A stretch of DNA of 41,935 nt from Anaerolineae bacterium (GTDB taxonomy: Bacteria > Chloroflexota > Anaerolineae > JAAYZQ01): NCBI GenBank assembly GCA_041559855.1, contig JBFFCR010000002.1, forward strand, positions 1 to 41,935, in the 5' to 3' direction. Position 1 is the first letter of the stretch. Each line of letters opens with the position of its first letter. Below are positions 17,066-41,903 of this stretch, piece after piece. The notes beneath the pieces were generated by a model. The model was given only the letters and a program-made list of their open reading frames with translations. It searched no databases and was not told where the DNA came from. The translations under genes and the position numbers were made by a program.

Positions 17066-17110
17066 CCCAGTACACTCCCGTTCAAACAGCCAACACTCAT
17101 AGCAAATCGG

Positions 17111-17893: not shown

Positions 17894-17933
17894 GCTCTCT
17901 CCTCAGCCGTGCGCCGCGCCGCTGGGTTAGACT

Positions 17934-18305: not shown

Positions 18306-18359
18306 TGGTGCTTTCCCTCCTTACAAGCGGATGGTCCCCCACCACCCACCTGCGCCCAC

Positions 18360-18890: not shown

Positions 18891-18973
18891 CGTACTTTTG
18901 CCTGCTCCGTTGTCGTTGTAGTTTTGGCTCGGGTCAGGATCGATGGCTCACCTTCCCGGTTGATGGAGCAGGA

Positions 18974-22525: not shown

Positions 22526-22547
22526 CGAAAGGGGAACAGCAACCAAG

Positions 22548-25155: not shown

Positions 25156-26095
25156 CATGACTCGACCCATCTTTGTCGTGGGCTCTGACAGATCGGGCAC
25201 CACACTTCTGCGACTAATGCTGACCTGCCATCCTGATGTCGCGATTCCACCAGAGAGCCTGTTTGCGCTTGACTTGTACCCCGCCTGGGGCAATGTTCGC
25301 CTAAAGGATGCTGAACAGATCCAGTCACTCTGCGACGAACTGTACGCCGACGAGACGTTCAGGGAATGGCGCGTGGCACGTGCCAACCTTGAAAAGACGA
25401 TCATGGGGCACCTGCCTCTGAGCTATGCCGAGTTCGTCGATCTTGTATACTTGACCTATGCACACCAACATCAGCCAACAGCGGTGCGCTGGGGCGACAA
25501 GAACCCAAGGTACGCCATGCACTTGCCATGGGTATGGCACCTCTTCCCTGACGCCAGGGTTATCCACATTATCCGGGACGGTCGCGCTGTCTTTAGCTCC
25601 TTCAGGGAGGCAAATCGCAAGGCCGGAATGACGATCTGGCCCGAGACAGTGAGCGCCGCAGCACGCAGTTGGACCATTCGATTGACTACAGCATGGCAGC
25701 ACCGGACCAACCCCAACTATGCGGAGGTATTCTACGAAAACCTGGTTCAAGCGCCCGAGACCGAGCTGCGTCAGCTGTGCGCATTCCTTGACCTTGAGTA
25801 CAACCCTGGCATGCTTGACTTCGCAGAGATGAACCGCAAGGAACAGCTGGTACCCAGGCATCGGCTTGCCTGGCACAGTGCCACCTTGAGGCCCGTGCAG
25901 GATTCAAAGGTGGCAGCGTGGCAAGACGCACTGAGTGCTTCTGATGTCGCACGATTCGAGTTGATGGCAGGGCATCACCTCGTCAGATGTGGCTACCCAA
26001 TCAGAGCAGGTAGACTCGGGCGATTTCGGATCGTGAACACGCTTTCGCTGTACGGGGCCACACTCTTGAGGAAGCTTCGCAGTGTGCACACGTGA
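25145..26095 (+). CDS. Sulfotransferase (RSGTT-type PAPS-binding loop)
   Basis: 316 aa. The 5'-PSB-like motif is PIFVVGSDRSGTTLLRLML and the 3'-PB-like motif is VIHIIRDGRAVFSS. It is a paralogue of the 31487-32452 gene. An alternative start at ATG 25157 has GGAG 6 nt upstream. The ATG at 25145 overlaps the flippase stop by 11 nt. Confidence 0.85.
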   Translation: METDMTRPIFVVGSDRSGTTLLRLMLTCHPDVAIPPESLFALDLYPAWGNVRLKDAEQIQSLCDELYADETFREWRVARANLEKTIMGHLPLSYAEFVDLVYLTYAHQHQPTAVRWGDKNPRYAMHLPWVWHLFPDARVIHIIRDGRAVFSSFREANRKAGMTIWPETVSAAARSWTIRLTTAWQHRTNPNYAEVFYENLVQAPETELRQLCAFLDLEYNPGMLDFAEMNRKEQLVPRHRLAWHSATLRPVQDSKVAAWQDALSASDVARFELMAGHHLVRCGYPIRAGRLGRFRIVNTLSLYGATLLRKLRSVHT

Positions 26096-26149
26096 AATGC
26101 GAGTACTTGATCTCGGTCTTGGACCTGTGAGCTTTGATGGAGTAGCTCT

Positions 26150-27520
26150 ATGAGCCAATGCAAGAACATCCTGATCGTGGTTTTCGACTGTCTGAGGCCC
26201 GATCATCTGTCCAACCTGGGCTATCACGGTACACACACGCCTACCTTTGACCGGTTTGCCAGCGAAGGCACGCTGTTTACCAATGCATATTGCCAGGCAC
26301 CCAACACCTGGATCTCGCACGCCAGTCTGTTCACGGGATGCAATCCTTACGTACATGGCGTGAGGACACCCACGAGGAAGCTGTCGCAGGACCTCAGGGT
26401 GATGGCCGAGGTATTCCGCGAGGCCGGGTACGCTACTTTCGGACTCCCCGCGATGTCGCTGTTGAGCCCCGAAGCCGGTTTCGCGCGAGGGTTTGACGAG
26501 TATATCCTCGATGGCCTGCGCAGCGAGCCCGGGGTCCTGGCACATCGCTACGATCGCACCGCTGACGAGACCCTGGCTCGAACCAGAGACTGGATCCGCA
26601 GAGTCTCCCCGCCCTTCTTTGGGTGGATACATTACTTTGGCACCCACAAAGTCGAGGACCATCTCTTCGATCTGCCCGAGGACTTTCGGCGCAGCCACTC
26701 GCCCTACGCACAATACTACGATGGCAAGGTCTCCTTCGCCGATCAGCGATTCCTATCACCTCTGGTGGACGAGCTGTCCGCACTGGGTCTACTGGAGGAC
26801 ACGATTGTGGTGCTATGGAGCGACCATGGCGAAGACTTGCACGCCATAGAGCATGGCCGCAACTGGGGGCACAATTGGGGGCTCACCGAGGAAGTCATGC
26901 GGACCGTACTCATCATGAGGGGCCCGGGACTATCGGCCGATAGGCACGAGGGCCTTGCCAGAAGCATCGACATCTTTCCCACCCTTGTTGACCTTGTTGG
27001 CCTTCGTCCGCTTCCCCAGTTCGAGGGCAGGTCGTTGGTCCGAGATAGTCTCACGCCCGAAGATGCAGTCTACATGGAGAATCTGTGCCAAGGGTTCGCA
27101 GCTATACGCAGAGGAAGATACAAGCTGGTGCTCGCAGAGCGCAGCCCGACGGAGGAAGGAAGCTGGAGGTGGAAGGCGTCCCTTGTGCGCAAGACCGTGA
27201 GGCAGGTGATGCCAGCGGGCGTGAAGAGACTGCGCCACAGGCTGCGCCGCACGGACGTCTCGATCTGGTGTAGCACAGAGGGTGAGCCCGAGGAGGTGAT
27301 GCAGAGACTCCTTGAGCGTGGCATCACCAGCCTGTACGATCTCGAAGCCGATCCGGACGAGCGCTATGACCTGGCCGCCACCAAGCCAACGCTGGTCGGG
27401 GAGTTGCGGCAATGTTTGACCGAAATCATAGAACGCACGGCGCACAGCACCGAGATGAGCATGAGTGATGAGGACCGTGAGCAAATCGAGGAGCGTCTCA
27501 GGGGTCTTGGCTATCTCTAA
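26150..27520 (+). CDS. Sulfatase-fold (alkaline-phosphatase superfamily) protein that lacks the C/S-x-P-x-R formylglycine motif
   Basis: 456 aa with no signal peptide or TM helix. The metal-site motifs are NILIVVFDCLRPDHL and VVLWSDHGEDL, and SIDIFPTLVDLVGL is also present. Where CxPSRxSLLTG is expected, the sequence reads NTWISHASLFTG (Thr53, nt 26306-26308). Confidence 0.85.
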   Translation: MSQCKNILIVVFDCLRPDHLSNLGYHGTHTPTFDRFASEGTLFTNAYCQAPNTWISHASLFTGCNPYVHGVRTPTRKLSQDLRVMAEVFREAGYATFGLPAMSLLSPEAGFARGFDEYILDGLRSEPGVLAHRYDRTADETLARTRDWIRRVSPPFFGWIHYFGTHKVEDHLFDLPEDFRRSHSPYAQYYDGKVSFADQRFLSPLVDELSALGLLEDTIVVLWSDHGEDLHAIEHGRNWGHNWGLTEEVMRTVLIMRGPGLSADRHEGLARSIDIFPTLVDLVGLRPLPQFEGRSLVRDSLTPEDAVYMENLCQGFAAIRRGRYKLVLAERSPTEEGSWRWKASLVRKTVRQVMPAGVKRLRHRLRRTDVSIWCSTEGEPEEVMQRLLERGITSLYDLEADPDERYDLAATKPTLVGELRQCLTEIIERTAHSTEMSMSDEDREQIEERLRGLGYL

Positions 27521-27596
27521 TATGACAAGTGCAACAATACAGGCACAGCTCGGCTACAGTGCCAGAAGTTCAGATGTTTGAACAAGGAGCTCGACA

Positions 27597-28262
27597 GTGA
27601 GAATCTCTCATGGATACCATTTCGTATTCCTGGCCTATCCCAGAACGGCAAGCAAGTCAGTTCGAGCGCTGCTTGATCCCTACTCGGACATCCAGGGCGT
27701 GCACCCCACAAGAACCGGGCGCAAGCACCCGTTCGCACAACATATGACTGCCAAGGAAGCGAAAGCCATCTTTGATCAGAACGGGTGGGACTGGTTCAGC
27801 TACCGGCGCTTTTGCTTCGTCCGGAATCCCTATACGCGGGTTGTTTCTCTGTACCATCACCACCGAAGCATGCGGACGCGGAGAGCCCCAGGCTTCGCTC
27901 CCATACCCAGGATCAAAGCACTCGTAAAGTACCGGCTGGAGCGTCCAAAGTCATTCAAAGAGTATGTCCTCACCCTTGAAAAGCATCAAGGCATGACCAT
28001 GCCACTCTATGACTTTATCCACGACGATGCTGGGATCTGCCTAGTAGACGATGTGCTCAAGTTTGAGGAGCTGACGGACGAGCTCCCGGGCTACCTGAGC
28101 CAACTGGGGATACAGATCCGACACGAGGACATTCCTATGGTTGGGTCGTCAGACATCCGGGAGTACAAGAGCTTCTACGATTCGGAGACTCGGGGCTTTG
28201 TCCAGAGCTTCTATCGGTACGAACTCGACCGATTCGGATATAGCTTCGAGGACATGAACTAG
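27597..28262 (+). CDS. Putative sulfotransferase (family-2-like)
   Basis: 221 aa. The GTG start has an AAGGAG RBS 7 nt upstream. The N-terminal HFVFLAYPRTASKSVRALL resembles the P-K/R-T-x-S/T PAPS loop of Sulfotransfer_2-type enzymes. Also contains FCFVRNPYTRVVSLYHH (3'-PB-like, RNP...S). The assignment is moderately confident. Confidence 0.65.
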   Translation: MRISHGYHFVFLAYPRTASKSVRALLDPYSDIQGVHPTRTGRKHPFAQHMTAKEAKAIFDQNGWDWFSYRRFCFVRNPYTRVVSLYHHHRSMRTRRAPGFAPIPRIKALVKYRLERPKSFKEYVLTLEKHQGMTMPLYDFIHDDAGICLVDDVLKFEELTDELPGYLSQLGIQIRHEDIPMVGSSDIREYKSFYDSETRGFVQSFYRYELDRFGYSFEDMN

Positions 28263-28311
28263 CTTAGCCAGCGCTTGCGACGACAGGCGACGGCTTTGGC
28301 AAGGAGAGAGC

Positions 28312-29145
28312 GTGATCGACATACTGGAGAGACGGCAGCGCGAGGCAGTACGCTGGTTCCACAGTCTGAGCGTGAACCGCGCGCGGGCCAGTCACCCGGG
28401 TCCCCGGGTGGTAGCCAACAGCATACCAAAGGCGGGCACGCACCTTCTTACTCGTTGCCTCCACCTGTTCCCCGACATCGAGGACTCGGGCTTGCGCATC
28501 CGGGGTCGCGTAAGGTACAAGGCCCTCAAGAAGCGCCTGAATCAGGTTGGCGGAGGATGCTTCATACCCTTGCATCTCTTCTTCACACCCCGGAGAGAGC
28601 AGCTTCTCACCGACTTGGCCTTCGCCATGGTTCTGATCACGCGCGATCCGCGGGACATTGCCACCTCCCACTTCCATTACGTCGCGCATGGGGCTCGGCT
28701 CCATCAGCTTCGAGGCTACTACCAAGCCCTTCCCGATGATTCCGCCAGACTCATGACCTCCATTCAGGGCATTCCCCAATCTGAATGGCGAGATCGTGTA
28801 CGCCTGTCGGACATCAACCGCAGATGCCGCGCTTTCCTGGACTGGGCGGATCGTGGTGCCTGCGTTGTGCAGTTCGAAAAGCTAGTCGGACCGCTGGGCG
28901 GCGGGACGCAGGAGGAGCAGCGTGGCGAGATTAGTAAGGTAGCCAGGCATCTAAACCTGGAGCTGGACCCTGCAACACTGAACCACATTGCCTCCAACGT
29001 GTATTCTCGCAAAACCTCAACCTTCCGCAAGGGCACTATCGGCGATTGGGCAAATCACATGGCGCCAGAGCACAAGGCAGCCTTCAATGAGGTCGCGGGC
29101 CAGCTCTTGATCGACCTCGGGTATGAAGCGGATGATAACTGGTAG
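28312..29145 (+). CDS. Sulfotransferase (PKxGT-type, Sulfotransfer_1-like)
   Basis: 277 aa. The GTG start has an AAGGAGAG RBS. The 5'-PSB motif is ANSIPKAGTHLLTRCL and the 3'-PB motif is VLITRDPRDIATSHFHY. Confidence 0.8.
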   Translation: MIDILERRQREAVRWFHSLSVNRARASHPGPRVVANSIPKAGTHLLTRCLHLFPDIEDSGLRIRGRVRYKALKKRLNQVGGGCFIPLHLFFTPRREQLLTDLAFAMVLITRDPRDIATSHFHYVAHGARLHQLRGYYQALPDDSARLMTSIQGIPQSEWRDRVRLSDINRRCRAFLDWADRGACVVQFEKLVGPLGGGTQEEQRGEISKVARHLNLELDPATLNHIASNVYSRKTSTFRKGTIGDWANHMAPEHKAAFNEVAGQLLIDLGYEADDNW

Positions 29146-29208
29146 ACGAACCGGGCATGCCGTTGCTGGCTCGCGACGCCAGGGCGCAGGTCATTGGGAA
29201 GGCGCACC

Positions 29209-30501
29209 GTGAACATCCTGCAGATCAGTTCAGCTGCCGACTCGGGCGGCGCGGGCGTTGCGATGGCACGCCTGCACCGCGCCTTGAATCGCCAGGGACA
29301 CCACTCGCACACAGTGGCTCGGCTCCGGAGGACGCCCCAACCCGGCGTGCTGACCCTCCCCGAGGCCTTGAGCGCAGGGCAGTCGCTCGTGCATCGCTCA
29401 ATCAACAATGCACGCATGCAACTCGATGCTTGGTTCAGCCTCCCTCGGGTGTACCGGTCGACCGAGCAGCTCCTCCACACAGCACTATTCAAGAAAGCTG
29501 ACGTCGTCCAGTTGCACAACCTGCACGGCTTCTACTTTAACTATGATTTGCTGCCCAAGATCTCCAGACTCAAGCCAGTCGTCTGGACATTGCATGACAT
29601 GTGGGCCCTGACGGGGCACTGTGCCTATTCCTACGATTGCGAGCGCTGGCAGACAGGCTGCTTCAGTTGCCCCCTCTTGCGCGGCAAAGGCCGCCAGCTG
29701 GTCGAGCCCAGGCCAACCCTGCTTGACCGCACAGCCATGCGGTGGCAGAAGAAGAAAGACCTCTACAGGAACAGCAAACTGCACATCGTGACGCCCTCGC
29801 TGTGGCTTGCCGGAAAGGTCCAGAGGAGCACGCTTGCTGGTGCCCTGAGCATCCAATGCATTCCCAATGGCGTTGACCTGTCGGTGTTCTGTCCCACGGA
29901 CCAAGCATCCGCGCGCGAGACCCTGGGAGTTCCACACGGGGCAAAGGTGCTCCTATTCGTCGCTGCCAAGGTCACCCAGGGCCGGAAAGGACTGGCTTAC
30001 CTATACAAAGCCCTTCATCTCCTCCGACAGACCAAGGAACTCGTCGTTTTGACCGTTGGCAGTGCGGGGCGCGACCTTGACGAGATCCCAGGCTATGAGC
30101 AGATCCACCTAGGGCAGCTGACCGAAGAGAGGCGGATCAACCTGGCGTATTGCGCTGCAGATCTGTATGTGCTGCCCACGCTGGCGGACAACCAGCCACT
30201 GACTGCCGTCGAGTCACTCGCGAGCGGCACGCCTGTCGTCTGCTTCGACGTCGGCGGCCTGCCCGAGACGGTGCAACATATGCGCACCGGATACCTGGCC
30301 CGTTGCGGGGACGCGGCCGATCTGGCAACCGGAATGCGCATGCTGCTGGAGGACGACGGCCTCCGGGCGCGGATGCGCAGCAACTCCAGGGACTTTGCGC
30401 TAGCTCATTACGCCCTTGAGGAACAGGCCAATCGTTATGTCGAGATCTACGAACATGCGGTCCACACTCAGCGGCGACTCGCAGAGGGTTCGGACCTATG
30501 A
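29209..30501 (+). CDS. Glycosyltransferase, GT-B fold (GT4-like)
   Basis: Contains VNILQISSAADSGGAGVAMARLH and the C-terminal EX7E-type region LYVLPTLADNQPLTAVESLASGTPVVCFDVGGLPETV. The track ORF begins at TTG 29194. The GTG at 29209 follows GGGAAGG and gives the usual N-terminus. Confidence 0.85.
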   Translation: MNILQISSAADSGGAGVAMARLHRALNRQGHHSHTVARLRRTPQPGVLTLPEALSAGQSLVHRSINNARMQLDAWFSLPRVYRSTEQLLHTALFKKADVVQLHNLHGFYFNYDLLPKISRLKPVVWTLHDMWALTGHCAYSYDCERWQTGCFSCPLLRGKGRQLVEPRPTLLDRTAMRWQKKKDLYRNSKLHIVTPSLWLAGKVQRSTLAGALSIQCIPNGVDLSVFCPTDQASARETLGVPHGAKVLLFVAAKVTQGRKGLAYLYKALHLLRQTKELVVLTVGSAGRDLDEIPGYEQIHLGQLTEERRINLAYCAADLYVLPTLADNQPLTAVESLASGTPVVCFDVGGLPETVQHMRTGYLARCGDAADLATGMRMLLEDDGLRARMRSNSRDFALAHYALEEQANRYVEIYEHAVHTQRRLAEGSDL

Positions 30502-31448
30502 AAGGCAAACCGCTGGTCTCTATCGTCACGCCATCGTTCAATCAGGGCCGTTTCCTCCGGGAAACCATCGAGTCGGTCCTGGCACAGACCTACGAGCCAA
30601 TTGAGTACCTTGTGATCGACGGCGGCTCTGACGACAATAGCGTCGAGATCATCCACAGTTACGCCGACCGCCTGGCCTACTCAGTTTCCGAGCCCGATCG
30701 AGGCCAGTCCCACGCCATCAACAAGGGGCTCCGGCGGTGCACGGGATCCATCATCGGATGGCTCAACTCAGACGATACTCTGATGCCTGACACAGTGGCT
30801 CGAGTCGTTCAAGCCATGCAGGAACCTCCCATGGTTGTCCATGGCAGTGTTCGTCTCATCGATGCTGAAGGCAAAATCGTCGCCCGACCAAAACTGGCCA
30901 AGCGCAACCAGGAGTTTGGCCTCCAGACCATCGTTGGCGAAGGTCTCGTGAACCAGCCCGGTGCCTTTTGGAACCGCGCCGCAATGGACTGTGCCGGCGT
31001 CCTAAACGAAGGCCTGAACTACATCATGGATTATGAGCTGTGGGTTCGTATGGCCTTGCGTGGTGTCCAGTTCAGACGTCTTGCAGACCCGCCTTTCGCC
31101 ACATACCGGCTGACCAGCGACACCAAGACCGTGGGCGCACTGTTCAAGGTAGGGCTGGAGAAGCTCGCTGTACTTGACCAGCTTCTGTCCGATCCCGAAC
31201 TGCCGCGAAAGACTGGCCTTTCGCCGGCAGAGCTCGAGCGCCAGGCAAATCGGGCGCGCGCCCTCGCCAGCCTGAAAGTGGCCCGAGGCTATGCACGCCT
31301 GCCAGAGCGGCGCCCTGAGGCGTTGCGCTGGCTGGCTCGGGCCGCCTGGTTGTGGCCGCCCTGCTTGCTGCTGGCACCCGAGCAACTTGCCAAGCGCCTG
31401 TGGGTGGGCCTGCGTACCCGTCTCGGCGCCGAACCGCCCACCTGGTAG
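30498..31448 (+). CDS. Glycosyltransferase family 2
   Basis: 316 aa. Contains VSIVTPSFNQGRFLRETIESVLAQTY, YLVIDGGSDDNS and WLNSDD (DxD). Its ATG overlaps the upstream stop (ATGA, 4-nt overlap). Confidence 0.9.
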   Translation: MKGKPLVSIVTPSFNQGRFLRETIESVLAQTYEPIEYLVIDGGSDDNSVEIIHSYADRLAYSVSEPDRGQSHAINKGLRRCTGSIIGWLNSDDTLMPDTVARVVQAMQEPPMVVHGSVRLIDAEGKIVARPKLAKRNQEFGLQTIVGEGLVNQPGAFWNRAAMDCAGVLNEGLNYIMDYELWVRMALRGVQFRRLADPPFATYRLTSDTKTVGALFKVGLEKLAVLDQLLSDPELPRKTGLSPAELERQANRARALASLKVARGYARLPERRPEALRWLARAAWLWPPCLLLAPEQLAKRLWVGLRTRLGAEPPTW

Positions 31449-31486
31449 TTCGGATGACAACTGGTGCACAGGAGAAGTAGACAATA

Positions 31487-32452
31487 ATGCTCCCTTCCGA
31501 GGCTCGCCCGATCTTTATCGTCGGAGTACACAGATCCGGCACCACCCTTCTGCGCTACATGCTCAGCAGCCACTCGCGGATCTACATCCCGCCCGAGTCC
31601 GACTTTATCCCTTACTTCTTTCTGCGCGATCCGATTGGCGAGCTGAGCGACGAACAAATAGCGCGCATGCTGCGCATTGTGTTTGAGCGCTACCGCTTTG
31701 CCAAGGAATGGCAGGGCAACCCGCCTGCCTTGGAACAATTCATCGCCTCTCTTTCCGGACGCACGCCTGCAGCTTTCCTCGACGCACTGTATGGTGCGTA
31801 CGCGAGACAATACGGTGCAGAACGTTGGGGCGACAAGACGCCAATCTATGCTAGCTACCTTACTCTCCTTCACCGTATATTTCCTAATGCCCAGTTTCTG
31901 CATATCATCCGGGACGGGCGCGATGCCGCACTCTCGATGCTGGACAAGTACGAACGCGAGGAATTCCACGTAGATGTCTTTTTCGCTGCCCGCAACTGGG
32001 TGCGGCGTATTCGTCGGGCTCAGCGTGCAGGTTCGCGGCTCGGGCCGGACCTTTACTATGAACTGCGCTACGAGCGCCTCATTCAAGACCCCGAGGGAGA
32101 GCTTTGCGCCGTATGCGAGTTCCTCGGCGAAACCTTCGAGCCTGGTATGCTCGAATACCACCAGGTGGCCCGCGAGCGCATCGCAACCGACAGTCACTTC
32201 TTCTCCAACGTCCGAAACCCGCCAAGTCACAAGCGAGTTGGCCGCTGGCAGTCCGAAATGCCCGTGAAGGACCAGCGGCTGGTCCAGTTCGTAGCGGGCA
32301 AATTGCTCACCGAGCTCGGTTACCCGATGGTCGATCTCGGAACGATGTCAGCCCTAGAAGTGGTGCGGATGGCGCTGTTGGCGTCCAAGTACGCCATCCT
32401 GCAGGTAGGCCGCCGCGTGCTTCAGGTAGCCGGCTTGTTCCCGCCGATCTAG
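31487..32452 (+). CDS. Sulfotransferase (RSGTT-type), paralogue of the 25145-26095 gene
   Basis: 321 aa. Contains PIFIVGVHRSGTTLLRYML, WGDKTPIY, FLHIIRDGRDAALS and YERLIQDPEGEL. Confidence 0.85.
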   Translation: MLPSEARPIFIVGVHRSGTTLLRYMLSSHSRIYIPPESDFIPYFFLRDPIGELSDEQIARMLRIVFERYRFAKEWQGNPPALEQFIASLSGRTPAAFLDALYGAYARQYGAERWGDKTPIYASYLTLLHRIFPNAQFLHIIRDGRDAALSMLDKYEREEFHVDVFFAARNWVRRIRRAQRAGSRLGPDLYYELRYERLIQDPEGELCAVCEFLGETFEPGMLEYHQVARERIATDSHFFSNVRNPPSHKRVGRWQSEMPVKDQRLVQFVAGKLLTELGYPMVDLGTMSALEVVRMALLASKYAILQVGRRVLQVAGLFPPI

Positions 32453-32464
32453 AGGACTTGCCCA

Positions 32465-33661
32465 ATGCGAATTCTCTGTCTCACGTCTCGACTGCCGTAC
32501 CCGCCCGATCGAGGTGACCGGCTCCGGGCCTTTCATTTCATCGAGCACCTTTCTCAAGAGCACGAACTTGGCCTGGCCTCGTTCATTGCCAGCGAATCGG
32601 AGCGAGACCATCTGCCTGCCCTGAGGGCCTACTGCCGCGATGTGCAGGTGCTGCCCATGAGCCCCCGGCGCTCGGCACTGGGCGCCGCACTGAACGTCTG
32701 GCGGAGGGAGCCCCTCCAGACTTTGTACTATCGCCTCGGGGCCATGCAGCGCATGGTCGACAGCATGATCGCCACGTCCAGTTGTCAGGCCGTCTACGTC
32801 CATCTCTTTCGCATGGCGCCCTACGTCGCCAATCACAGGCAACTCTACCGGATCGCGGACCTCACTGATGTCATCTCCAGGGAGATCGACCTGTCGCTCC
32901 CATTTCGTGGACTTGGATCCCGCGCCGTCTATCGACTTGAAAAGGACCGAATCGCCCGATACGAGCGGTGGATCGCGCAGAGCTTTGAAGAGACCTGGCT
33001 GATCTCGGAATCGGATCGGCTGGCGCTGGCCCGAGAGTGCCCTGGGGCCAACATCAGGCTGGTGCCGAACGGCGTTGACCTGGAGCAGTTTCATCCCACT
33101 GGTGAACCGGCTGTGCCCCACAGTTTGATCTTTGTCGGCCACCTGCGCGTGCTGCATAACATCGATGCTGCAACCTACCTGGCCCGGGAGGTCTTGCCCC
33201 TCGTTCAGAAAGAGATAGGCGACTGCAAACTCAGCATCGTGGGAGCAGATCCCGCTCCCCAGATCCGGCGCCTGGCCGAGGAACCTGCTATCACAGTGAC
33301 CGGTTTCGTACCCGATCTGAATGCGCATCTCAACCGGTCCGCTGTCTTTGTCGCGCCCTTGCGCTTTGCCGCCGGCATCCAGAACAAGGTCCTGGAAGCA
33401 ATGGCAGCAGGCAAGCCGGTGGTCACGACCTCCCTGATCAATGATGGGCTCGGCGCCGAGCCGGGCCGCCAGATACTTGTGGCCGACGACGCCCAGGCGA
33501 TCGCCCGCCAGATCACAAGATTGCTGGCCGACCCGGCATTGAGGGAACGGATCGGCAGCGCCGGCCGTCAGTTCGTGGAGCAGCGCTACAGCTGGGGGCA
33601 CGCACTTGAGCGGATGCGGACCATTGAGGAGCTCTTGAAGCAACCCCTCGACCCTACCTGA
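32465..33661 (+). CDS. Glycosyltransferase, GT-B fold (GT4-like)
   Basis: 398 aa. Contains MRILCLTSRLPYPPDRGDRLRAFHFIEHL and the C-terminal FVAPLRFAAGIQNKVLEAMAAGKPVVTT. Confidence 0.85.
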   Translation: MRILCLTSRLPYPPDRGDRLRAFHFIEHLSQEHELGLASFIASESERDHLPALRAYCRDVQVLPMSPRRSALGAALNVWRREPLQTLYYRLGAMQRMVDSMIATSSCQAVYVHLFRMAPYVANHRQLYRIADLTDVISREIDLSLPFRGLGSRAVYRLEKDRIARYERWIAQSFEETWLISESDRLALARECPGANIRLVPNGVDLEQFHPTGEPAVPHSLIFVGHLRVLHNIDAATYLAREVLPLVQKEIGDCKLSIVGADPAPQIRRLAEEPAITVTGFVPDLNAHLNRSAVFVAPLRFAAGIQNKVLEAMAAGKPVVTTSLINDGLGAEPGRQILVADDAQAIARQITRLLADPALRERIGSAGRQFVEQRYSWGHALERMRTIEELLKQPLDPT

Positions 33662-33754: not shown

Positions 33755-33877
33755 AGCCCACACTGAGGCGGCTAGGCCGAGCTGGTCGTGCCGCCAACGG
33801 AGAGCTGGTCCATTGATTGGATTGACCGCCCTCCGGACCATCGAAAAGGCAAAGAGAGCGGCAACGGGTATGGTACA

Positions 33878-34858
33878 ATGAGAATTCTCGTTACGGGTGG
33901 GGCAGGCTATATCGGATCCAACCTCGTAGATGCCTTGCTGTCTGGCGGTCACAGCGTAGCTGTCGTGGACAACCTCTCCACCGGCAGGATCGCCAACATA
34001 CAGCACCTGCTCGGCCATGAGCGCTTTCGCTTTGTCAATGACACCATCCTCAACGAACCACTGATCGACCGCCTGATTGCAGACGTCGACCAGGTATATC
34101 ACCTGGCTGCAGTGGTAGGGGTCAAGTACGTCCTTAGCGACCCCCTCCAAGGCATCAAAACCAATATCGCCGGAACGGAACTCGTTCTCCACCATGCTCG
34201 CAGGCATTGGAAGCGAACCGTCGTCGCATCAAGCTCAGAGGTATATGGCAAGAACCCCAACCTGCCCTGGTCAGAAGAGGACGACTGCCTACTGGGTTCC
34301 ACAGACGTCAGGCGATGGTCCTACGCCTTGTCCAAGGCCATTGACGAGCACTGCGCCCTAGCGCACGCGCGAGATGGACTTCCTGTGTCCGTCGTGCGGT
34401 ACTTTAACTCCTACGGTCCTCGTCTCAATGCAAGCGGCTATGGCAGCGTCGTAGCCAGATTCATCAGTCAGGCACTGGCGGGCCAGCCGATAACAGTATA
34501 TGGCGATGGGTTACAGACTCGCTGTTTCACCTACGTAACGGACACAGTGCGCGGCACCATGCTGGCGGCGACCGTGCCCGAGGCCACCGGCAAGGTATTC
34601 AACATCGGCGCCGACGGGGAGATCACCATCGCCGCTCTGGCCGAGTTGGTGCGCGCCCTGGCGGGCTCCGACTCTGCCATCGTCAATGTCCCCGTCGAGG
34701 ACGTCTTCGGCGAGCGCTTTGAGGAAACGCGACGCCGAGTGCCGGACGTACGACGGGCAGCCGACGTGCTTGGTTTCCGGGCCGCCACGCCGCTTGAGGA
34801 CGGACTGCGAGCCACCATCGATTGGTTCCGGCAAACTGGGTCCGCCGCTGGCGGATAG
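33878..34858 (+). CDS. NAD-dependent epimerase/dehydratase (extended SDR; UDP-glucuronate decarboxylase/UXS-like)
   Basis: Contains MRILVTGGAGYIGSNLV (Rossmann fold), SSSEVYG, YALSKAIDE (YxxxK) and FNSYGPRL...ARFISQALAGQPITVYGDGLQTRCFTYVTD. The track ORF starts at GTG 33788. ATG 33878 gives the canonical N-terminus. Confidence 0.88.
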   Translation: MRILVTGGAGYIGSNLVDALLSGGHSVAVVDNLSTGRIANIQHLLGHERFRFVNDTILNEPLIDRLIADVDQVYHLAAVVGVKYVLSDPLQGIKTNIAGTELVLHHARRHWKRTVVASSSEVYGKNPNLPWSEEDDCLLGSTDVRRWSYALSKAIDEHCALAHARDGLPVSVVRYFNSYGPRLNASGYGSVVARFISQALAGQPITVYGDGLQTRCFTYVTDTVRGTMLAATVPEATGKVFNIGADGEITIAALAELVRALAGSDSAIVNVPVEDVFGERFEETRRRVPDVRRAADVLGFRAATPLEDGLRATIDWFRQTGSAAGG

Positions 34859-34932: not shown

Positions 34933-37900
34933 ATGCGAACCAGACTGGGAGCTATTTGCGATAAGATAATCGAGGCAGGGTGGCTTGCCGCCATCATCAT
35001 CGTGCCCTTGTTCTTCAACATCCACACCAACCGGGTTTTCGAGCCCGACAAGCTCTCCCTACTCCGCTCCATCGCCCTAGTAATGGCCGCAGCCTGGCTG
35101 ATCCGGGCCGTCGAGGATTGGCGCACTGGCTGGGAGCCGGATGGGTTGGGCGGAAGGGAGATACCGTTTCTGCAGCGCGTCTACAGGACTCCCCTGGTCA
35201 TACCCACGCTGCTGCTGGTGCTGAGCTATTTGATCAGCACGGTCCTCTCGATTGCCTGGAGGCTCAGCCTGCTAGGGAGCTACCAGCGACTGCAGGGCAC
35301 CTATACCACCCTTGCCTACATCGTGATTTTTTTCCTCATGCTCGAGGGACTGCGGACAAAGCGGCAGTTCAACCGCATCATCAACACTGCCATTGTGGTC
35401 AGCTTTCCTATCGCCCTCTATGCATTGATCCAGCACTTTGGGCTGGATCCACTGCCCTGGGGAGGCAACGTCACCAAGCGCGTTGCCTCGACCATGGGCA
35501 ATGCCATCTTTGTCGGCGCCTACATGATCATGATCGTACCCCTAACCTTGACCAGGCTCATGGAAAACTGGAAAGAGGCTACCGGCCACATTCAGACCCG
35601 CGACATCCTGCTGGGTGGACTGGCCTTCATTCTCCTGGTCATTGTCCTCTTGGTCGCCATGCTCTGGCACCCAAAAGGTGGGATGGCTTGGATACGATGG
35701 GTGGGTCTCTTGGTCGGTATCGCGCTGGAGATACTGATCTACGCCCTCAGCCCGGCTGAAGGCCGGTCCAAGATACTGGCCATCTCCCTGCCCCTTACCT
35801 TTGCCTTCATGGTAGGATTCCTCTGGGTCCTGGAAATCGTCATCCCGACAGCAGACCCAACCAAGTCGTTCTGGTTTGGCCTCGGTGCCGTGTTCGTCTT
35901 TCTGTTGGCCATGGCGCTCTTTGCCTACTACCTGCGCAAATCCGTTGCACGGTTGCTCCTACTAGCCGGCTACTTTGTCATCCTCATTGCACAGGTCATA
36001 TCCATCTTCTACACCCAGAGCCGCGGACCCGCGCTCGGCCTGCTCGCGGGTCCGCTTGTCTACTTGGCCGTGACTGGCCTGGCAAAGCGAAGGATCTGGC
36101 TGACTTGGGCAGTCAGCACGTTGGCGGTCACCGCGGCGCTGTTCCTCGTCATCTTCAACACCGTTGACTCGCCCCTCATGGACACACTGCGCGAAGTTCC
36201 CTACATCGGGCGGCTGGGTAAGGTGCTGCAAACCGAGGAAGGCACCGGCCGCGTGCGCATCCTGATTTGGGAGGGCGTCACCGAACTGATGGACTGGCAC
36301 GAGCCCCTCGAAACGCCGGGTGAGGATGGGGGACCCGATGCACTCAATGCACTGCGACCGATCATTGGCTATGGCCCAGAGGCCATGTATGTAGCGTTCA
36401 ACCGCTTCTACCCACCCGAGCTCGCCCATTTCGAGAAACGGAACGCCTCGCCCGACCGTTCTCACAACGAAACCTTTGATGCCCTTGTGACCAGGGGCTA
36501 TCTCGGCCTGGCAGTGTACCTGTTCCTCTTCACCAGCGTCTTCTACTTCGCCTTCAAGTGGTTGGGCTTCATCCGTGAGAACTGGCAGAAGATAGCATTC
36601 CTGGCCTCCTGGGCAGTCGGAGGCCTCCTTGGCACGGTCGGATTTTGGGCGTGGCGGGGACCAGCCTATGTCAGCGTGGGGCTGCCCATAGGCGCCCTCT
36701 TGGGCCTTGCGGTCTACCTCCTGATCCTGCTACTGCATGCGACGTTCTGGCAGGGAGACTGGCGAGAGTCCCGCGGGTGGCGTAAGGCAGCCTTCGTCGG
36801 CTCGTGGATCAGCGGGATCGTGATTGGCTCCGCTGGCTTGTGGGCATCGCATGTACCTAACTACTTCGCTGTAGGTGTACTCATCCCAGCAACTGTGGGA
36901 CTCTTGCTCTACTTCTTTACCGAGTTCTTCGCTGCGGTTCGCGGACCTTCGGCAGAACCAGCAAAGGGCGGACACTGGCACATTTGGCTTATTGCGTTGC
37001 TCGCAGCCGCCGTCGCCCACTTTGTCGAGATCCAGTTCGGAATCGCCATTGCTGCCACGCGCACCTACTTCTGGGTTGCAGCCGCCATGTTGGTGGTGCT
37101 TGGCATTCGCTTCGCATCGCAGCCCGATGAGACAGAGACCGCAACACAGGAGGAGAAACAGGATCGAGATCTGATCCGAACCACATCACGTCGGCGTCGG
37201 CGCAGAGCTTCTCGAGCCCCAGCTAGAAAGCCGGCACCGAATCTCGAGTGGCTGGGCTCACTCATCGTCCTGAGCATTCTGGCAATCCTGATCGTTGGCA
37301 CCATGTTCTTCGACTGGACCGTCCCGCTCGCCAAAGAGTCGAGCCCGCTTACTACCATCTGGAAGTCGCTCACCGAGGCAGACGGAAAGACCTCTTTGGT
37401 CATGCTTGCCCTCTTTGCGGCTACCTGGCTTATGCTTGGCATCGTGGGCCTGGCAGAGCTGGCGACCAGCGATGAGTCCGCGAACAAGACGCGCGGGGAC
37501 TGGCTGAAGGCAGCAGGCATCTTCGCCTTGGCGTCCTCTGTCGGCGCTCTCGTTTATGCCATCTTCCACGCAGCGAACCTCGATCCGGCCTCGGTCACGG
37601 CCACTGGCATCATCGAGGACAATCCGGTGGTAGGTGCCGTCACAACCTACTTTGGTTTCCTTCTGGCCATCATTCTCGTCCTGGCTGCGGCACTCGCTAT
37701 GTTGTTCCGGCGCTGGACCATGCCCTGGCGATGGATCGGGAAGCTGCGTGATGTCGGCGTGATCGTATCGCTGGTGCTCGCTCCTGTCGTTGCCATTGTG
37801 CTGATCTTTGTCACGAACATCCGCATCGTCAGTGCTGACATCTGGTACAAACAGGGGCTTAGTTCGGAGCGCCTTGATCAATGGGACTTGGCCATGGAGT

Positions 37901-39495
37901 TCTATTCCGGAGCTACCAACTTGGCCGAGGATGAGGATTTCTACTACCTGTTCCTGGGCAGAGCCCTCTTGCAGAAAGCGGGGACCGTCAGCGGCGCGGC
38001 TAGGGTATCGTGGCTGCTAGAAAGCGAGAGAGCCCTGCAGACCGCCGTTGAGCTCGCGCCCCTGAATCCGGACCACTCGCGCAACCTCTCCAAACTCTAT
38101 CTGACTTGGGCGGGGTTCAGCACAGGAGAGCAGCGTGCGGAGCTCGTCGAAAAGGCTCTTGTCTACTCCGACCAGGCCATTGCCCTCAGCCCCAACACCG
38201 CCGACATCTGGAACGAGCGAGCCCAGATCTATGCCACTGTGGGCGACGTCGAGAAGGCCAAAGAAGTCTACGAGGAGTCATTGGCCGTCGACGACGAGTA
38301 CGCAAGGACCCATCTCTCCTTGGGCGAGCTGTACGAGACCCAGGAGCGGTGGGCAGATGCTGCCGCAGAGTACTCAAGAGCCAAGGAGCTCAACCCCAAA
38401 CTCATTGAGGCATACAGCGATCTGGGCAACGCGTACCTGCAAATGGGCGACGTCGAGAAGGCCAAAGAAGTCTACGAAGAGTCATTGGCCATCGATGACG
38501 AGTACGCAAGGACCCATCTTTTCCTGGGCAGGCTGTACGAGGCCCAGGAGCGGTGGGCAGATGCTGCCGCAGAGTACTTGAGAGCCATCGAGCTCAACCC
38601 TAAACTCACCGAGGCATACAGCGATCTGGGCAACGCGTACCTACAAATGGGCGACCTGGAGCGCGCACTTGAGGCCTATACTATCGCTGCCAAGGCCAAC
38701 ACCAGCAACCCCATCGCCCACGGCGCACTTGCCTATATCTATACTATGCTAGGCGATGCTGACCGCGCAATCACTGAGAACCTCGCCGTCATAGATCTGC
38801 TTCCTGACGACTATAATAGCTACAGGAATCTCGCAGTCCTCTATGGACAGGAAGGTGACATCGTCAAAGCACTATCCGCGGCCGAAAAGGCACTGACCCT
38901 GGCGTCAGAAGAGGACGTCACATGGTTGGAACAATACATCGAGGAGCTAAGAACCATGCTAAGCAGTTCATCGTCTACCGCCCGTAACGGCATGTACAGC
39001 GCACCGCCACCCTTGGTTATCGATCCCACGAAATCCTATCAGGCCACCATCGTCACCGAGAAGGGAGACATCGTCATAGAGCTGTACGCCGATCGCGTGC
39101 CCACCACCGTCAGCAACTTTGTCTTCCTCGCACGTGAGGGATTCTACGACGACACCACCTTCCACCGCGTCATTCCCGGATTCATGGCCCAGGCAGGCGA
39201 TCCCCTCGGTACAGGCACTGGTGGACCAGGCTATACCTTCGCGGACGAGTTCGACGAGACGCTCCGCCACGACGGCCCTGGCGTTCTCTCGATGGCCAAC
39301 CGCGGCGCCAACACCAACGGCAGTCAGTTCTTTATCACCTACGCTGCCACAGACTGGCTGGATGGGCGTCACGCCGTCTTTGGGCGCGTGATCGAGGGTA
39401 TGGACGTTCTCAACTCGCTCACGCCACGCGATCCGGGCGCCAACCCCGGATACGAGGGCGACGCCATCCTTACTATCCGCATTCAGGAAGACTAA
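34933..39495 (+). CDS. Giant fusion protein: Wzy/O-antigen-ligase-like polytopic domain, a second multi-TM region, a TPR array, and a C-terminal cyclophilin-type peptidyl-prolyl isomerase
   Basis: 1520 aa. The Wzy_C-type motif is [20 protein letters not shown] (about nt 36005-36065). About 20 or more hydrophobic helices extend to about aa 970, interrupted by a basic loop, [16 protein letters not shown] (about nt 37180-37225). The TPR repeats span about nt 37840-38940. The cyclophilin domain reads [42 protein letters not shown]...[23 protein letters not shown]...[14 protein letters not shown]. Confidence 0.9.
38242..38649 (+). repeat. In-frame tandem duplication of 2 x 204 bp (2 x 68 aa, i.e. 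two TPR pairs) inside the giant fusion gene
   Basis: Unit 1 (38242-38445) and unit 2 (38446-38649) both begin GGCGACGTCGAGAAGGCCAAAGAAGTCTACGA. I counted about 17 mismatches in 204 nt by eye (about 92% identity). The protein units are [68 protein letters not shown] and [68 protein letters not shown]. Confidence 0.9.
39025..39492 (+). other. Cyclophilin-type PPIase domain (C-terminal ~155 aa of the fusion protein); boundaries approximate
   Basis: See the motifs listed for the 34933-39495 gene. The domain starts near [17 protein letters not shown] (Tyr codon at 39037). Confidence 0.85.
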
Positions 39496-39507: not shown

Positions 39508-40551
39508 ATGAACGCCACTTTCCTGCTCATCTTTGCCAGCGCACTGGTGATGGCCATCGGCGGCACACCATTGATTCGCCGTGTCGCTATCCGGCTTGGC
39601 GTCATCGACGAACCTAACGCGCGCAAGATCCACACCGACCCTATCCCCCTACTGGGCGGTGTGGCAATCTATGGGGCGTTCATCGCTGCCCTATTGCTAT
39701 TTGGCAGCCGCTACCGTCTTAATGAGTTGGTCAGCATCCTCGTGGGAGCCAGTCTCATGTCCTTCTTGAGTGTGTGGGACGATCGACAAGGCCTCAGTCC
39801 GCTGCTAAAGCTCGCGGGGCAGTTTCTTGCCGCATCGATCCTCGTGATCTCGGGTGTGTACATCGGCACCTTCCCATGGGAAGCGCTCAACATCGCTCTG
39901 ACGCTCCTCTGGGTCGTCGTCGTGACCAATGCCATGAACCTACTGGACAACATGGACGGCTTGTCCGGAGGTGTGGGCGCAGTGGCTGCCGTCTTTTTCC
40001 TGCTGTTGGCAGCCATGAACAACCAGTACCTGGTGGGCGCCCTGTCAGCAGCCCTGGTGGGAGCCTGCCTTGGGTTTCTCGTCTACAACTTTAATCCGGC
40101 CAGCATCTTCATGGGCGATGCCGGGGCTCTATTCCTCGGATTCATCCTGGCAGCAGTGGCCATCAAGCTACGCTTCCCCGAGGGCGTCCAGATTGTCACC
40201 TGGATGGTGCCGGTCCTGATCCTCGGCCTACCCCTCTTTGACACGGCGATGGTCATCGTCTCAAGGCTGCGCAGAGGGTACAACCCGCTCACCACCCCAG
40301 GCAAGGACCATGTCTCTCACCGGCTCGTGGCCTTGGGCTATACGCGACGGGAAGCGGTGCTCATCTGCTACTTGATCTGCGCTGGCTTGGGCATCATTGC
40401 CTTGTTCATCACACAGGCAAACATCCTGGAGGGCTACATCGTGGGCGGTATCATGGCCCTCGTCGGTTTGGCGGCTCTTGTTCGGCTGGAGAGGATAGAC
40501 TTTCCAGGCAAGCAAGCAAGAGGCGACTTATTCAAGCGAAGAGGCCACTGA
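39508..40551 (+). CDS. Polyprenyl-phosphate N-acetylhexosamine-1-phosphate transferase (MraY/WecA/TagO family)
   Basis: 347 aa with about 10-11 TM helices. Contains [33 protein letters not shown] and [21 protein letters not shown]. Confidence 0.9.
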
Positions 40552-41903
40552 TGGACGCTCTGGCGCGCAAGATCGCGGATAGGTCAGCCCGCGTGGCGGT
40601 CATCGGGCTCGGATACGTCGGCCTGCCCCTTGCTGTAGGCTTTGCCAGGGCAGGCTATCAGGTGCTGGGTCTGGACGTGGATGAGCGCAAGCTCGCCGCA
40701 CTGAGCGAGGGCCGATCCTACATCCAAGACGTGGCGAGTCCCGATATCATGGCTGTTGTGCAAGCCGGCAGGCTATCCGCCACCAGCAACTACGATCTGC
40801 TTGCCCGGACCGATGCGATATTCATCTGTGTTCCCACGCCTTTCGACGCCATGAAAGCGCCTGACCTCTCCTACATCGAGGAGGCAGCTCGGGGAATTAC
40901 CGCGCGTCTGAAAGCAGGCCAGCTCATCGTCCTGCAGAGCACGACCTATCCTGGCACGACCGAGGAGTTTGTGCTTCCCATCCTTGAGGAGTCGGGACTC
41001 AAGGCAGGAGAGGACTTTTGCCTGGCCTTTTCACCTGAGCGTATCAACCCGGGAGATCGCGAGTACTCTGTGGAGAACACGCCCAAAGTTGTGGGCGGTG
41101 TGACCCCTCGATGTTCTGAATTGGGGCGCATGTTGCTCCTCGAACTGTTTCCCCACGTGCACGTTGTCAGCTCTACTCGCGCCGCCGAGATGTCCAAGCT
41201 GCTCGAAAACATCTTTCGCAGTGTCAACATCGCGCTGGTCAACGAGTTGGCTCTCCTGTCCGAACGGATGGGCATCGATATGTGGGAGGTTATTGAAGCA
41301 GCAAAGACCAAGCCTTTTGGCTTCATGCCCTTCTACCCAGGCCCGGGCGTCGGCGGTCACTGCATACCGGTGGATCCCTATTACCTCAGCTGGAAAGCCC
41401 GCGAATACGACTTTTACACCAAGTTCATCGAGTTAGCGGCCGAGGTGAACCAGACGATGCCCTACCATGTGGTAGACCTTATCGCCCAGGCGCTGAGCGC
41501 GGCTGGCAAGCCACTCGATGGGGCGCAGGTCTTGGTACTAGGAGTCGCATTCAAGCGCGACACCGACGATGCCCGTAATTCACCTGCAGAGCGGATTATC
41601 GAGCTGCTGCTCAGACGAGGTGCCCAGGTCGAGTACAGCGATCCCCTTGTGCCACGATATCCCGTCGGGCGCGATGTCTTCTTCCCGGCAGAGCGCCTGC
41701 TCGAGAGCGTAGAGTTGACAGACCAGACTCTCAAGGATGCGGACTGTGTGGTCATTCTCGCCGCACACCGAGCGGTGGACTATGCTCGGGTCATGCGACA
41801 GACAGAGCTGATCGTGGATGCGGTCAACGCCACCCACGGCCTGAGCGGGACTGCCCGTGTTGTACGCATCGGCGCACCGGCGCCACCCCTAAAGCCTCGA
41901 TGA
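40551..41903 (+). CDS. Nucleotide-sugar 6-dehydrogenase (UDP-GlcNAc/UDP-ManNAc dehydrogenase-like: WecC/WbpA/Cap5O family)
   Basis: 450 aa. Contains VAVIGLGYVGLPLAVGFARAGY (Rossmann fold), the catalytic-Cys region GPGVGGHCIPVDPYYL and VLGVAFKRDTDDARNSPA. Its start overlaps the upstream stop by 1 nt (TGATG). Confidence 0.9.
   Translation: MDALARKIADRSARVAVIGLGYVGLPLAVGFARAGYQVLGLDVDERKLAALSEGRSYIQDVASPDIMAVVQAGRLSATSNYDLLARTDAIFICVPTPFDAMKAPDLSYIEEAARGITARLKAGQLIVLQSTTYPGTTEEFVLPILEESGLKAGEDFCLAFSPERINPGDREYSVENTPKVVGGVTPRCSELGRMLLLELFPHVHVVSSTRAAEMSKLLENIFRSVNIALVNELALLSERMGIDMWEVIEAAKTKPFGFMPFYPGPGVGGHCIPVDPYYLSWKAREYDFYTKFIELAAEVNQTMPYHVVDLIAQALSAAGKPLDGAQVLVLGVAFKRDTDDARNSPAERIIELLLRRGAQVEYSDPLVPRYPVGRDVFFPAERLLESVELTDQTLKDADCVVILAAHRAVDYARVMRQTELIVDAVNATHGLSGTARVVRIGAPAPPLKPR

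Follow-up and report, generated by a model that had tools for sequence, protein, structure and literature searches.

A single gene in the 41,935-nucleotide stretch of Anaerolineae (Chloroflexota) DNA analysed here (contig JBFFCR010000002.1 of assembly GCA_041559855.1; hereafter the window) encodes a protein of 1520 amino acids with four parts: a membrane module resembling the Wzy_C family of O-antigen ligases and polymerases, a second, family-specific membrane module, an array of about 10-11 tetratricopeptide repeats (TPRs), and a complete cyclophilin domain of the peptidyl-prolyl isomerase (PPIase) type. We confirmed that this fusion is a real, conserved protein of the Anaerolineae, and its gene closes a Wzx-type, sulfotransferase-rich glycan cluster. 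By analogy with characterised systems, we tentatively propose that it may be a transferase similar to PglL and WsfB, one that would attach a glycan from a lipid carrier to secreted proteins, the TPRs serving for docking and the cyclophilin as a foldase in cis; we rate this reading somewhat short of an even chance. The parts of the gene are as follows (TM, transmembrane helix).

34933 to 39495, forward strand: whole open reading frame (ORF) of 1520 amino acids, comprising membrane module 1, membrane module 2, TPR array and cyclophilin
34933 to 36567, forward strand: membrane module 1, residues 1-545, TM1-14, a Wzy_C-like core with a large external loop (Pfam, hhalign, topology)
35980 to 36294, forward strand: Pfam Wzy_C (PF04932) match, residues 350-454, 34.1 bits against a gathering cut-off of 31.7, with the invariant S363-R364-G365-P366
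36163 to 36489, forward strand: predicted 109-amino-acid extracytoplasmic loop, residues 411-519, with R503-x4-D-R-S-H511-N (alignment, charge bias)
36568 to 37830, forward strand: membrane module 2, residues 546-966, TM15-25, family-specific (HMMER, model)
36775 to 36912, forward strand: extra TM hairpin, residues ~615-660, an internal duplicate of ~550-595 (local alignment)
37018 to 37074, forward strand: invariant module-2 motif H696-F-V-E699-I-x-F-G703-I-A-I706-A707-A-T709-R710-T-Y-F-W714, at the outer end of TM19/TM20 (alignment columns)
37114 to 37245, forward strand: predicted Arg-rich cytoplasmic loop, residues 728-771, 12 K+R, between TM20 and TM21 (topology)
37831 to 38937, forward strand: TPR array of ~370 amino acids and ~10-11 repeats, predicted extracytoplasmic (Pfam, topology)
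38240 to 38655, forward strand: unit of two TPRs duplicated in tandem (2 copies, period 204 bp, 91% DNA identity)
38938 to 39045, forward strand: Ser-rich linker and, ahead of the cyclophilin, a conserved segment ([23 protein letters not shown]) that recurs in related loci with both fused and stand-alone cyclophilins
39046 to 39492, forward strand: cyclophilin-type PPIase domain, residues 1372-1520 (PF00160, full catalytic set)

The reading frame opens with ATG and runs through 1520 codons with zero internal stops. Its start is correctly placed, since the N-terminus (MRTRL..CDK.IEAGWL) is conserved among homologues. A preliminary description, made from the DNA letters alone, had proposed the four-part architecture in one ORF, and both the uninterrupted frame and the Pfam scan bear this out: besides Wzy_C, the scan recovered TPR families (TPR_1/2/8/11/12/16/17/19 and others) densely over residues ~1030-1330, led by TPR_2 (112.7 bits) and TPR_1 (108.5 bits), and Pro_isomerase (PF00160) at residues 1372-1497 (160.5 bits). 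All of the motifs quoted in that description are present. The same account had called for a check that no frameshift or assembly join underlies the gene. Logan contigs from four marine and sediment metagenome runs tile it with substitutions only and no indels or joints, and the same fused ORF occurs in dozens of independent assemblies. We therefore rejected an assembly artefact or frameshift, also given that the internal tandem repeat is 91% and not 100% identical.

What the preliminary description had taken for an unusual one-off is a conserved family found in several Anaerolineae lineages. Homologous clusters were drawn from NCBI, ENA, JGI and Logan assemblies, and a full-length search returned ~100 clusters (90% identity) of ~1490-1560 amino acids with the same Pfam composition. 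Among the 120 best clusters, 96 carry C-terminal cyclophilin motifs, which fall into two sub-types at the same position: a classic MAN...W-L-D-G type (59 clusters) and a MAR type that is E. coli-like and contains an insertion (37 clusters; homologues cited for the C-terminal sub-types are P0054, P0061, P0072, P0078, P0081, P0088, P0094, P0096 and P0097). The sub-types are ~49% identical to one another, and the catalytic residues are kept in both. Two peptides of the external loop, PDRSHNET and GYGPE[SA]MY, picked out 583 or more genomes, each representing a species. The 80 best are all Chloroflexota, most of them labelled Anaerolineae or with names such as Promineifilaceae, Ardenticatenaceae, Thermoflexales, Anaerolineales or Ca. 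Leptofilum. Automatic annotation names these proteins "peptidylprolyl isomerase [Anaerolineae/Chloroflexota]" at NCBI and gives them compound cyclophilin/TPR/O-antigen-ligase labels at JGI. The preliminary description had allowed that the architecture might prove to be both widespread and curated. Widespread it is, but the NCBIfam scan of the fusion matched no curated family at cut-off, with TPR and PpiA/PpiB matches all below it. That description knew of no published example either, and our literature searches on the architecture and on Anaerolineae ligases likewise returned general Wzy_C/TPR papers only and no paper describing the family.

The cyclophilin is fused in some members of the family and is a separate gene in others. 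Of 65 orthologous ORFs whose 3′ end is intact, 22 have the cyclophilin fused, and the other 43 stop after the TPRs. Where loci were divided into domains, alignment columns set the cuts. Downstream of 19 of the 43 unfused orthologues (0.3-5.4 kb, same strand), typically straight after a WecA-like gene, lies a cyclophilin gene whose product takes one of two forms. The first is a protein of ~250-290 amino acids that has a K/R-rich N-terminus and a single TM anchor, and whose cyclophilin shares 52-69% identity with that of the window. The second is a lipoprotein of ~420 amino acids with an LSACG-type lipobox, a thioredoxin/DsbA-like CPGC domain and a divergent cyclophilin-like domain. Genes of this second form lie 3′ of the WecA-like gene in one unfused clade, in the following related loci.

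L025, 18173 to 19426: thioredoxin-cyclophilin lipoprotein
L027, 14657 to 15940: thioredoxin-cyclophilin lipoprotein
L033, 6776 to 8041: thioredoxin-cyclophilin lipoprotein
L039, 14605 to 15888: thioredoxin-cyclophilin lipoprotein
L080, 5635 to 6900: thioredoxin-cyclophilin lipoprotein

Both stand-alone forms are predicted to be exported, matching the predicted outside site of the fused domain. A crude neighbour-joining tree of the membrane module separates the fused orthologues into two clades, one of which is nested among lineages with anchored stand-alone cyclophilins. When linker and cyclophilin are aligned, the fused domain in either clade looks like the stand-alone cyclophilin found in the unfused orthologues nearest to that clade, and this likeness covers the pre-domain segment (..RPLA.L.P.ERN.YY..PP.M.ID..K.Y.A.I). 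Because the tree shows two fused clades, and the cyclophilin of each matches the nearest stand-alone protein, the pattern suggests at least two independent fusions of a pre-existing neighbour gene. Cyclophilin gene order and strand are conserved across clades. This alternation of fusion and fission is Rosetta-stone evidence for a functional link between the two proteins. One further orthologue, of ~1500 amino acids (L024, 1-4509), has no cyclophilin match and may bear a different C-terminal extension.

Judged by its residues, the fused cyclophilin is a complete PPIase-type domain. Against solved structures it matched CYP71 at E = 3.5e-44 and human CypA at ~1e-35. Its catalytic and substrate-site segments ([14 protein letters not shown] ... 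[17 protein letters not shown] ... [11 protein letters not shown]) keep the equivalents of human CypA R55, F60, M61, Q63, A101, N102, Q111, F113, W121, L122 and H126. In the preceding TPR array, the tandem duplication (61 of 68 amino acids identical) adds two TPRs and is peculiar to the gene in the window. By eye, the window protein seems to be without two to three TPRs that homologues show after "ERALEAY".

The membrane part was assigned from hydropathy, charge bias and AlphaFold2 helices. Two structure models, both of the membrane part, were available: an AlphaFold2 model of residues 1-1005 built from 68 sequences (predicted local distance difference test, pLDDT, 83.8; predicted template modelling score, pTM, 0.89), and a second, lower-quality model of 548 amino acids from 13 sequences (pLDDT 66). 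Hydropathy and model helices concur on 25 predicted TM helices, laid out as TM1-13, the 109-amino-acid external loop, TM14-20, the Arg-rich loop, TM21-25 and a soluble tail. Only five helices follow the Arg-rich loop, which lies between TM20 and TM21, and not ~10 as the preliminary description had counted; the second membrane block as a whole has ~12 helices here and ~10 in homologues. Averaged over 68 aligned family members, the 13 short loops placed in the cytoplasm have a K+R sum of 37.0, against 9.7 for the 11 placed outside, and the Arg-rich loop has a family mean of 9.9 K+R. This analysis predicts an N-in/C-out topology that puts the 109-amino-acid loop, the TPRs and the cyclophilin outside the cytoplasm, with the outside placement of the TPRs and cyclophilin resting on the charge bias of the loops over the 68 sequences.

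Module 1 carries the features that tie the fusion to glycan ligases. In the 68-sequence alignment, S363-R364-G365-P366 is invariant in a short external turn between TM11 and TM12, as are R427, R442, H456, D469, R475, E483, E501, R503, D508, R509, S510, H511 and N512 in the big loop. WaaL and PglL possess conserved Arg and His residues in a large extracytoplasmic loop that follows the core TM helices (WaaL R215, R288 and H338; PglL R224, R298 and H349). The fusion offers R427, R442, R475, R503, R509, H456 and H511, together with R364 in a TxSRG loop, for comparison, and a one-to-one mapping was not achieved. The spacing H511-N-x9-G522-x2-G525 fits a WaaL motif. An hhalign comparison with the other Wzy_C protein in the window (3234-4769, reverse strand) gave 90.9% probability, with the alignment confined to the TxSRG region. 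Precomputed annotation lists PF04932 for the majority of homologues, and distant members are borderline at 31.6-33.9 bits. On this basis the fusion is classified by sequence as a distant member of the O-antigen-ligase (Wzy_C) superfamily.

Module 2, by comparison, matched no Pfam model. An exhaustive HMMER search placed it in 443 representative clusters, always at about residues 400-850 of proteins of ~1000-1500 amino acids, and only inside the fusion's own family, whose distant members consist of membrane part and TPRs with or without Wzy_C and cyclophilin matches. Its invariant or near-invariant block comprises H696, E699, G703, I706, A707, T709, R710 and W714 over the 68 sequences. By its distribution, module 2 is a family-specific extension, and given the pTM of 0.89 it is modelled as packing with module 1 into one unit. 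The extra hairpin within it is unique to the window protein: the region measures 79 amino acids here, has a median of 14 amino acids in 67 homologues and never reaches 60 in them. The duplication scores 109 in local alignment against 30.6 ± 6.9 for shuffled sequences (maximum 69), and pLDDT is low at residues 611-652 of the model.

The gene cluster that the fusion closes extends over the following features of the window.

23695 to 25155, forward strand: Wzx flippase
25145 to 26095, forward strand: sulfotransferase
26150 to 27520, forward strand: sulfatase-family protein
27597 to 28262, forward strand: sulfotransferase
28312 to 29145, forward strand: sulfotransferase
29194 to 30501, forward strand: glycosyltransferase
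30498 to 31448, forward strand: glycosyltransferase
31487 to 32452, forward strand: sulfotransferase
32465 to 33661, forward strand: glycosyltransferase
33788 to 34858, forward strand: NAD-dependent short-chain dehydrogenase/reductase (SDR) sugar epimerase/dehydratase, a frequent upstream partner
39508 to 40551, forward strand: WecA-like polyprenyl-phosphate N-acetylhexosamine (HexNAc)-1-phosphate transferase, the conserved downstream partner (Glycos_transf_4; TIGR02380 at 132.7 bits, below cut-off)
40551 to 41903, forward strand: nucleotide-sugar 6-dehydrogenase (TIGR03026, 432 bits)

In 54 of 58 species-representative loci, a WecA-like gene lies 3′ of the fusion orthologue on the same strand and within 600 nucleotides; an epimerase gene stands directly 5′ of it in 24 of 60. 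Related loci keep the frame of epimerase, big gene, WecA-like gene, sometimes dehydrogenase, and DedA/VTT, while the inner genes vary: sulfotransferases in some, ATP-grasp, DUF7033 and Epimerase_2 genes in others, and NeuB, CTP_transf_3 and hexapeptide transferase genes in yet others. No domain of the Wzz type or of other polysaccharide co-polymerases (PCP), the chain-length regulators that work with Wzy polymerases and are encoded in or close to their clusters, was found in the scanned ORFs of the window or in four related loci. A gene for outer-membrane polysaccharide export (OPX) is absent from the window, and the cluster has neither an LCP-type gene nor a second polytopic protein that might be a polymerase. 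Neither the window nor the related loci contain genes for lipopolysaccharide (LPS), and no conserved candidate target gene lies beside the fusion. PglL-type enzymes, which transfer a glycan en bloc from undecaprenyl diphosphate to Ser/Thr of proteins, are encoded away from LPS loci and often beside their target.

Several observations concern the cluster itself. The sulfotransferases and the sulfatase-family gene (25145-32452) imply a heavily sulfated glycan; the sulfatase-family gene is missing from the otherwise collinear cluster of the closest relative (L002). A DedA/VTT membrane protein, which may serve polyprenyl-phosphate recycling, ends the conserved cluster in four related loci (L001, 17152-17736; L002, 16869-17450; L003, 17469-18071; L004, 15135-15800), and the window stops short of its position. 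Directly 5′ of Wzx is a gene of the M24 Xaa-Pro peptidase/prolidase type (window, 22497-23666, forward strand; L001, 1-649; L002, 1-120), another proline-directed enzyme whose location may be coincidence.

In the reading that we prefer, the WecA-like enzyme would initiate a HexNAc-started oligosaccharide on a lipid carrier (undecaprenyl phosphate), the glycosyltransferases and sulfotransferases of the cluster would complete the glycan, which here would be sulfated, and Wzx would flip it outward. Because the fusion is a distant Wzy_C member, it should act on a glycan linked to undecaprenyl diphosphate at the outer face. There its core of 23-25 TM helices would transfer the glycan, with a catalytic site on the 109-amino-acid external loop that may involve invariant Arg, His and Asp. 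As for PglL and WsfB, the likeliest acceptors would be Ser or Thr (or Tyr) side chains on proteins that are secreted or belong to the envelope. The extracytoplasmic TPR array could dock the acceptor or a partner protein, and the tethered cyclophilin could isomerise prolyl bonds of the same client, either keeping the acceptor segment accessible or completing folding after glycosylation. The donor, the protein acceptor and any catalytic coupling are what we infer from these comparisons. The preliminary description had suggested coupling of glycan ligation or polymerisation to a protein partner, and it gains comparative support from the predicted outside position of TPRs and cyclophilin and from the clustered genes for exported cyclophilins.

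Several lines of evidence lead us to favour a protein acceptor. Two protein-handling modules are predicted to lie outside by the catalytic loop, and a foldase was apparently recruited more than once. Conservation of the enzyme does not depend on which glycan-specific genes surround it; its constant companion is the initiating transferase, and no chain-length or export genes accompany it. Oligosaccharyltransferases and ligases of relaxed specificity stay conserved across glycan types, while Wzy polymerases normally diverge with the structure of the repeat unit. Precedent for the architecture also argues for such an acceptor: the pilin oligosaccharyltransferase TfpW, of the GT-C type, carries a TPR in the periplasm, and the S-layer O-oligosaccharyltransferase WsfB and PglL combine Wzy_C with a C-terminal TPR, with WsaB accompanied by an adjacent TPR protein (PMC2943079). 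The phylum is reported to lack both LPS and the BAM pathway (PMC13319060), and a lipid A-core acceptor is unlikely because of this reported absence of LPS.

A number of results weigh against this reading. Searches of PDB with the membrane part, by sequence and by profile, were empty even at E ≤ 10, and Foldseek searches of PDB with the 1005- and 548-amino-acid models gave nothing at E ≤ 0.001 and no ligase or oligosaccharyltransferase among the 50 matches listed, in a method that is weak on all-helical membrane proteins. Because these searches were empty, the link to Wzy_C depends on one short conserved region. PglL_A (PF15864), the domain that tells PglL from WaaL (PMC3643930), was absent from the Pfam scan at E ≤ 0.01 and from the precomputed Pfam lists of homologues. 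The PPIase is not obligatory, since for 24 of the 43 unfused orthologues the available sequence shows no cyclophilin. Lastly, the fusion is the sole Wzy_C-type protein inside a Wzx cluster, as would be expected of a Wzy polymerase too, and TPR arrays double as scaffolds for polysaccharide export, according to work cited within PMC2943079.

These last two points feed the strongest of the alternatives, which we consider unlikely but the most credible rival. Here the fusion would be the Wzy-type polymerase of the cluster's sulfated heteropolysaccharide, its TPR scaffold would guide the chain through a thick, multilayered envelope, and its cyclophilin would fold envelope or export partners. No other multi-TM protein of the Wzy_C family stands beside the Wzx flippase, the WecA-like initiator and the several glycosyltransferases, TPR export scaffolds are exemplified by BcsC, PgaA, AlgK and PelB (cited within PMC2943079), and Chloroflexota envelopes are thought to hold polysaccharide layers (PMC13319060). 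Such a polymerase, however, would have no PCP or export gene in the window or in the conserved core, and its membrane part is 45-78% identical across the loci of the family despite their differing glycosyltransferase and modification genes. Nor would a polysaccharide substrate explain the repeated recruitment of a foldase.

It is less probable still that the fusion is a ligase acting on a non-protein acceptor of the envelope (peptidoglycan, a glycolipid anchor or another wall polymer), as an Anaerolineae counterpart of WaaL or LCP enzymes in which TPRs and cyclophilin would assemble or position a wall-synthesis complex. Membership of the Wzy_C family is compatible with this, as is conservation independent of the glycan-specific genes, and the class-wide and apparently single locus with its WecA-like, dehydrogenase and DedA/VTT genes recalls pathways for the linkage unit of secondary wall polymers. 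Yet the only well-established non-protein acceptor of the Wzy_C family is missing if Chloroflexota are, as reported, without LPS, and it is difficult to see why an enzyme acting on lipid or peptidoglycan would carry two modules for handling proteins. Least probable, in our estimate, is a mechanistically meaningless fusion in which an exported housekeeping cyclophilin of the operon was joined by loss of the intergenic region and uses the membrane protein as an anchor: this would suit the TM or lipid anchors of the stand-alone cyclophilins, which the fusion replaces, and the unfused orthologues with no cyclophilin nearby, but fusion seemingly occurred at least twice and was retained over deep divergence (the 96 of 120 top clusters), gene order and strand are conserved across clades, and both cyclophilin sub-types keep their catalytic residues.

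Returning to the protein-directed transferase that we prefer, a bolder version of it is possible, though doubtful: a hitherto unrecognised "glycosylate-and-fold" machine, class-wide in Anaerolineae, in which the TPRs would capture newly exported envelope proteins, the cyclophilin would control whether prolines beside the acceptor residues are cis or trans, and the Wzy_C-like core with module 2 would transfer a lipid-linked and often sulfated glycan. If true, bacteria would have, in a single chain, an analogue of the eukaryotic oligosaccharyltransferase with its folding-catalyst subunits. The Chloroflexota envelope is poorly understood; it is multilayered and without LPS, and the composition of its layers is obscure (PMC13319060). 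The locus described here is conserved in hundreds of Anaerolineae species and probably represents a central envelope-glycan pathway of which the fusion would be the terminal enzyme. The repeated fusion or operon linkage with an exported prolyl isomerase leads to a testable hypothesis, namely that glycan transfer and extracytoplasmic folding are physically coupled in these bacteria. An O-oligosaccharyltransferase of relaxed glycan specificity, if that is what the protein is, could be of interest for glycoengineering. The database name "peptidylprolyl isomerase" hides the main function and deserves revision.

Other genes in the window lie apart from the cluster. The second Wzy_C protein (3234-4769, reverse strand; 511 amino acids, 48.7 bits), which has a weak match to the IctB family, is encoded 30 kb from the cluster and could be the true polymerase of the organism or another ligase. 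A hybrid sensor kinase of 2566 amino acids with ~10 GAF domains, PAS, HisKA, HATPase_c and two receiver domains (6342-14042, reverse strand) is adjoined by a REC-GGDEF protein (14105-14989, reverse strand). Within 16415-19801, also on the reverse strand, genes for a V4R-domain protein (16415-17065), a Ras/MglA-like GTPase (18360-18890) and a DUF4388 protein (18974-19801) are close together.

Among known systems, the cyclophilin part invites two comparisons. The streptococcal lipoprotein SlrA is an exported, membrane-tethered cyclophilin of monoderm bacteria that acts on secreted proteins. It resembles the stand-alone orthologues of the related loci, whereas the anchor of the fusion is a 25-TM putative glycan transferase with a TPR array. 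Cyp40 has an N-terminal cyclophilin followed by a C-terminal domain of three TPRs that binds Hsp90, and it is cytosolic. It shares with the fusion the presence of TPRs and a cyclophilin in one polypeptide, but the analogy drawn in the preliminary description fails on domain order and compartment: the fusion runs from TPRs to cyclophilin, has ~10-11 TPRs, is predicted to expose them outside the cytoplasm, and tethers them to a membrane enzyme.

Eukaryotic oligosaccharyltransferase couples glycan transfer to the oxidoreductase subunits Ost3/Ost6 (TUSC3/MagT1). The likeness is one of concept only, a glycan transferase coupled to a folding catalyst, and the thioredoxin-cyclophilin lipoproteins strengthen the parallel; the catalytic subunit STT3 is unrelated, the chemistry is N-linked, the subunits are separate, and the catalyst is a thioredoxin instead of a cyclophilin. 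Eukaryotic TMTC1-4 are GT-C glycosyltransferases with luminal TPRs that act on proteins. Like TfpW of P. aeruginosa, in which a membrane glycosyltransferase is joined to a non-cytoplasmic TPR platform for protein substrates, they resemble the fusion in layout, but the membrane enzymes of TfpW and TMTC1-4 are of another family, the ArnT/PMT-like GT-C type marked by a DDX motif, and have no PPIase.

Nearer to the membrane core, the fusion shares with Wzy O-unit polymerases its position as the sole Wzy_C-like protein in a Wzx-type cluster, and differs from them in its strong conservation despite variable glycan genes, the lack of a Wzz/PCP partner and the attached protein-handling domains. With WaaL it has in common the Wzy_C Pfam family and a large loop, predicted here to be external, that follows the core TM helices and bears invariant Arg and His. 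It shows no detectable sequence or fold match to the solved structures and adds a membrane module, TPRs and a PPIase. WaaL in the strict sense was set aside, the host phylum being reportedly without LPS (PMC13319060).

The closest counterparts are the O-oligosaccharyltransferases PglL and WsfB, which are likewise polytopic Wzy_C enzymes with an extracytoplasmic C-terminal TPR, encoded together with a flippase, an initiating phosphoglycosyltransferase and glycosyltransferases and without a chain-length regulator (PMC2943079; PMC3643930). The fusion departs from them in having about twice as many TM helices (23-25), owing to the second membrane module, ~10-11 TPRs versus a short motif, a fused cyclophilin, and no PglL_A match. 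It is not classed as a PglL because it fails the PglL_A test, the one that defines the proteobacterial PglL subgroup, and it gave no superposition on a solved ligase. We accordingly class it by its domains only, as a distant member of the Wzy_C superfamily with a cyclophilin and a TPR array, and not as PglL, WaaL or Wzy. In its manner of working, it most likely comes closest to an O-oligosaccharyltransferase of the PglL/WsfB type.

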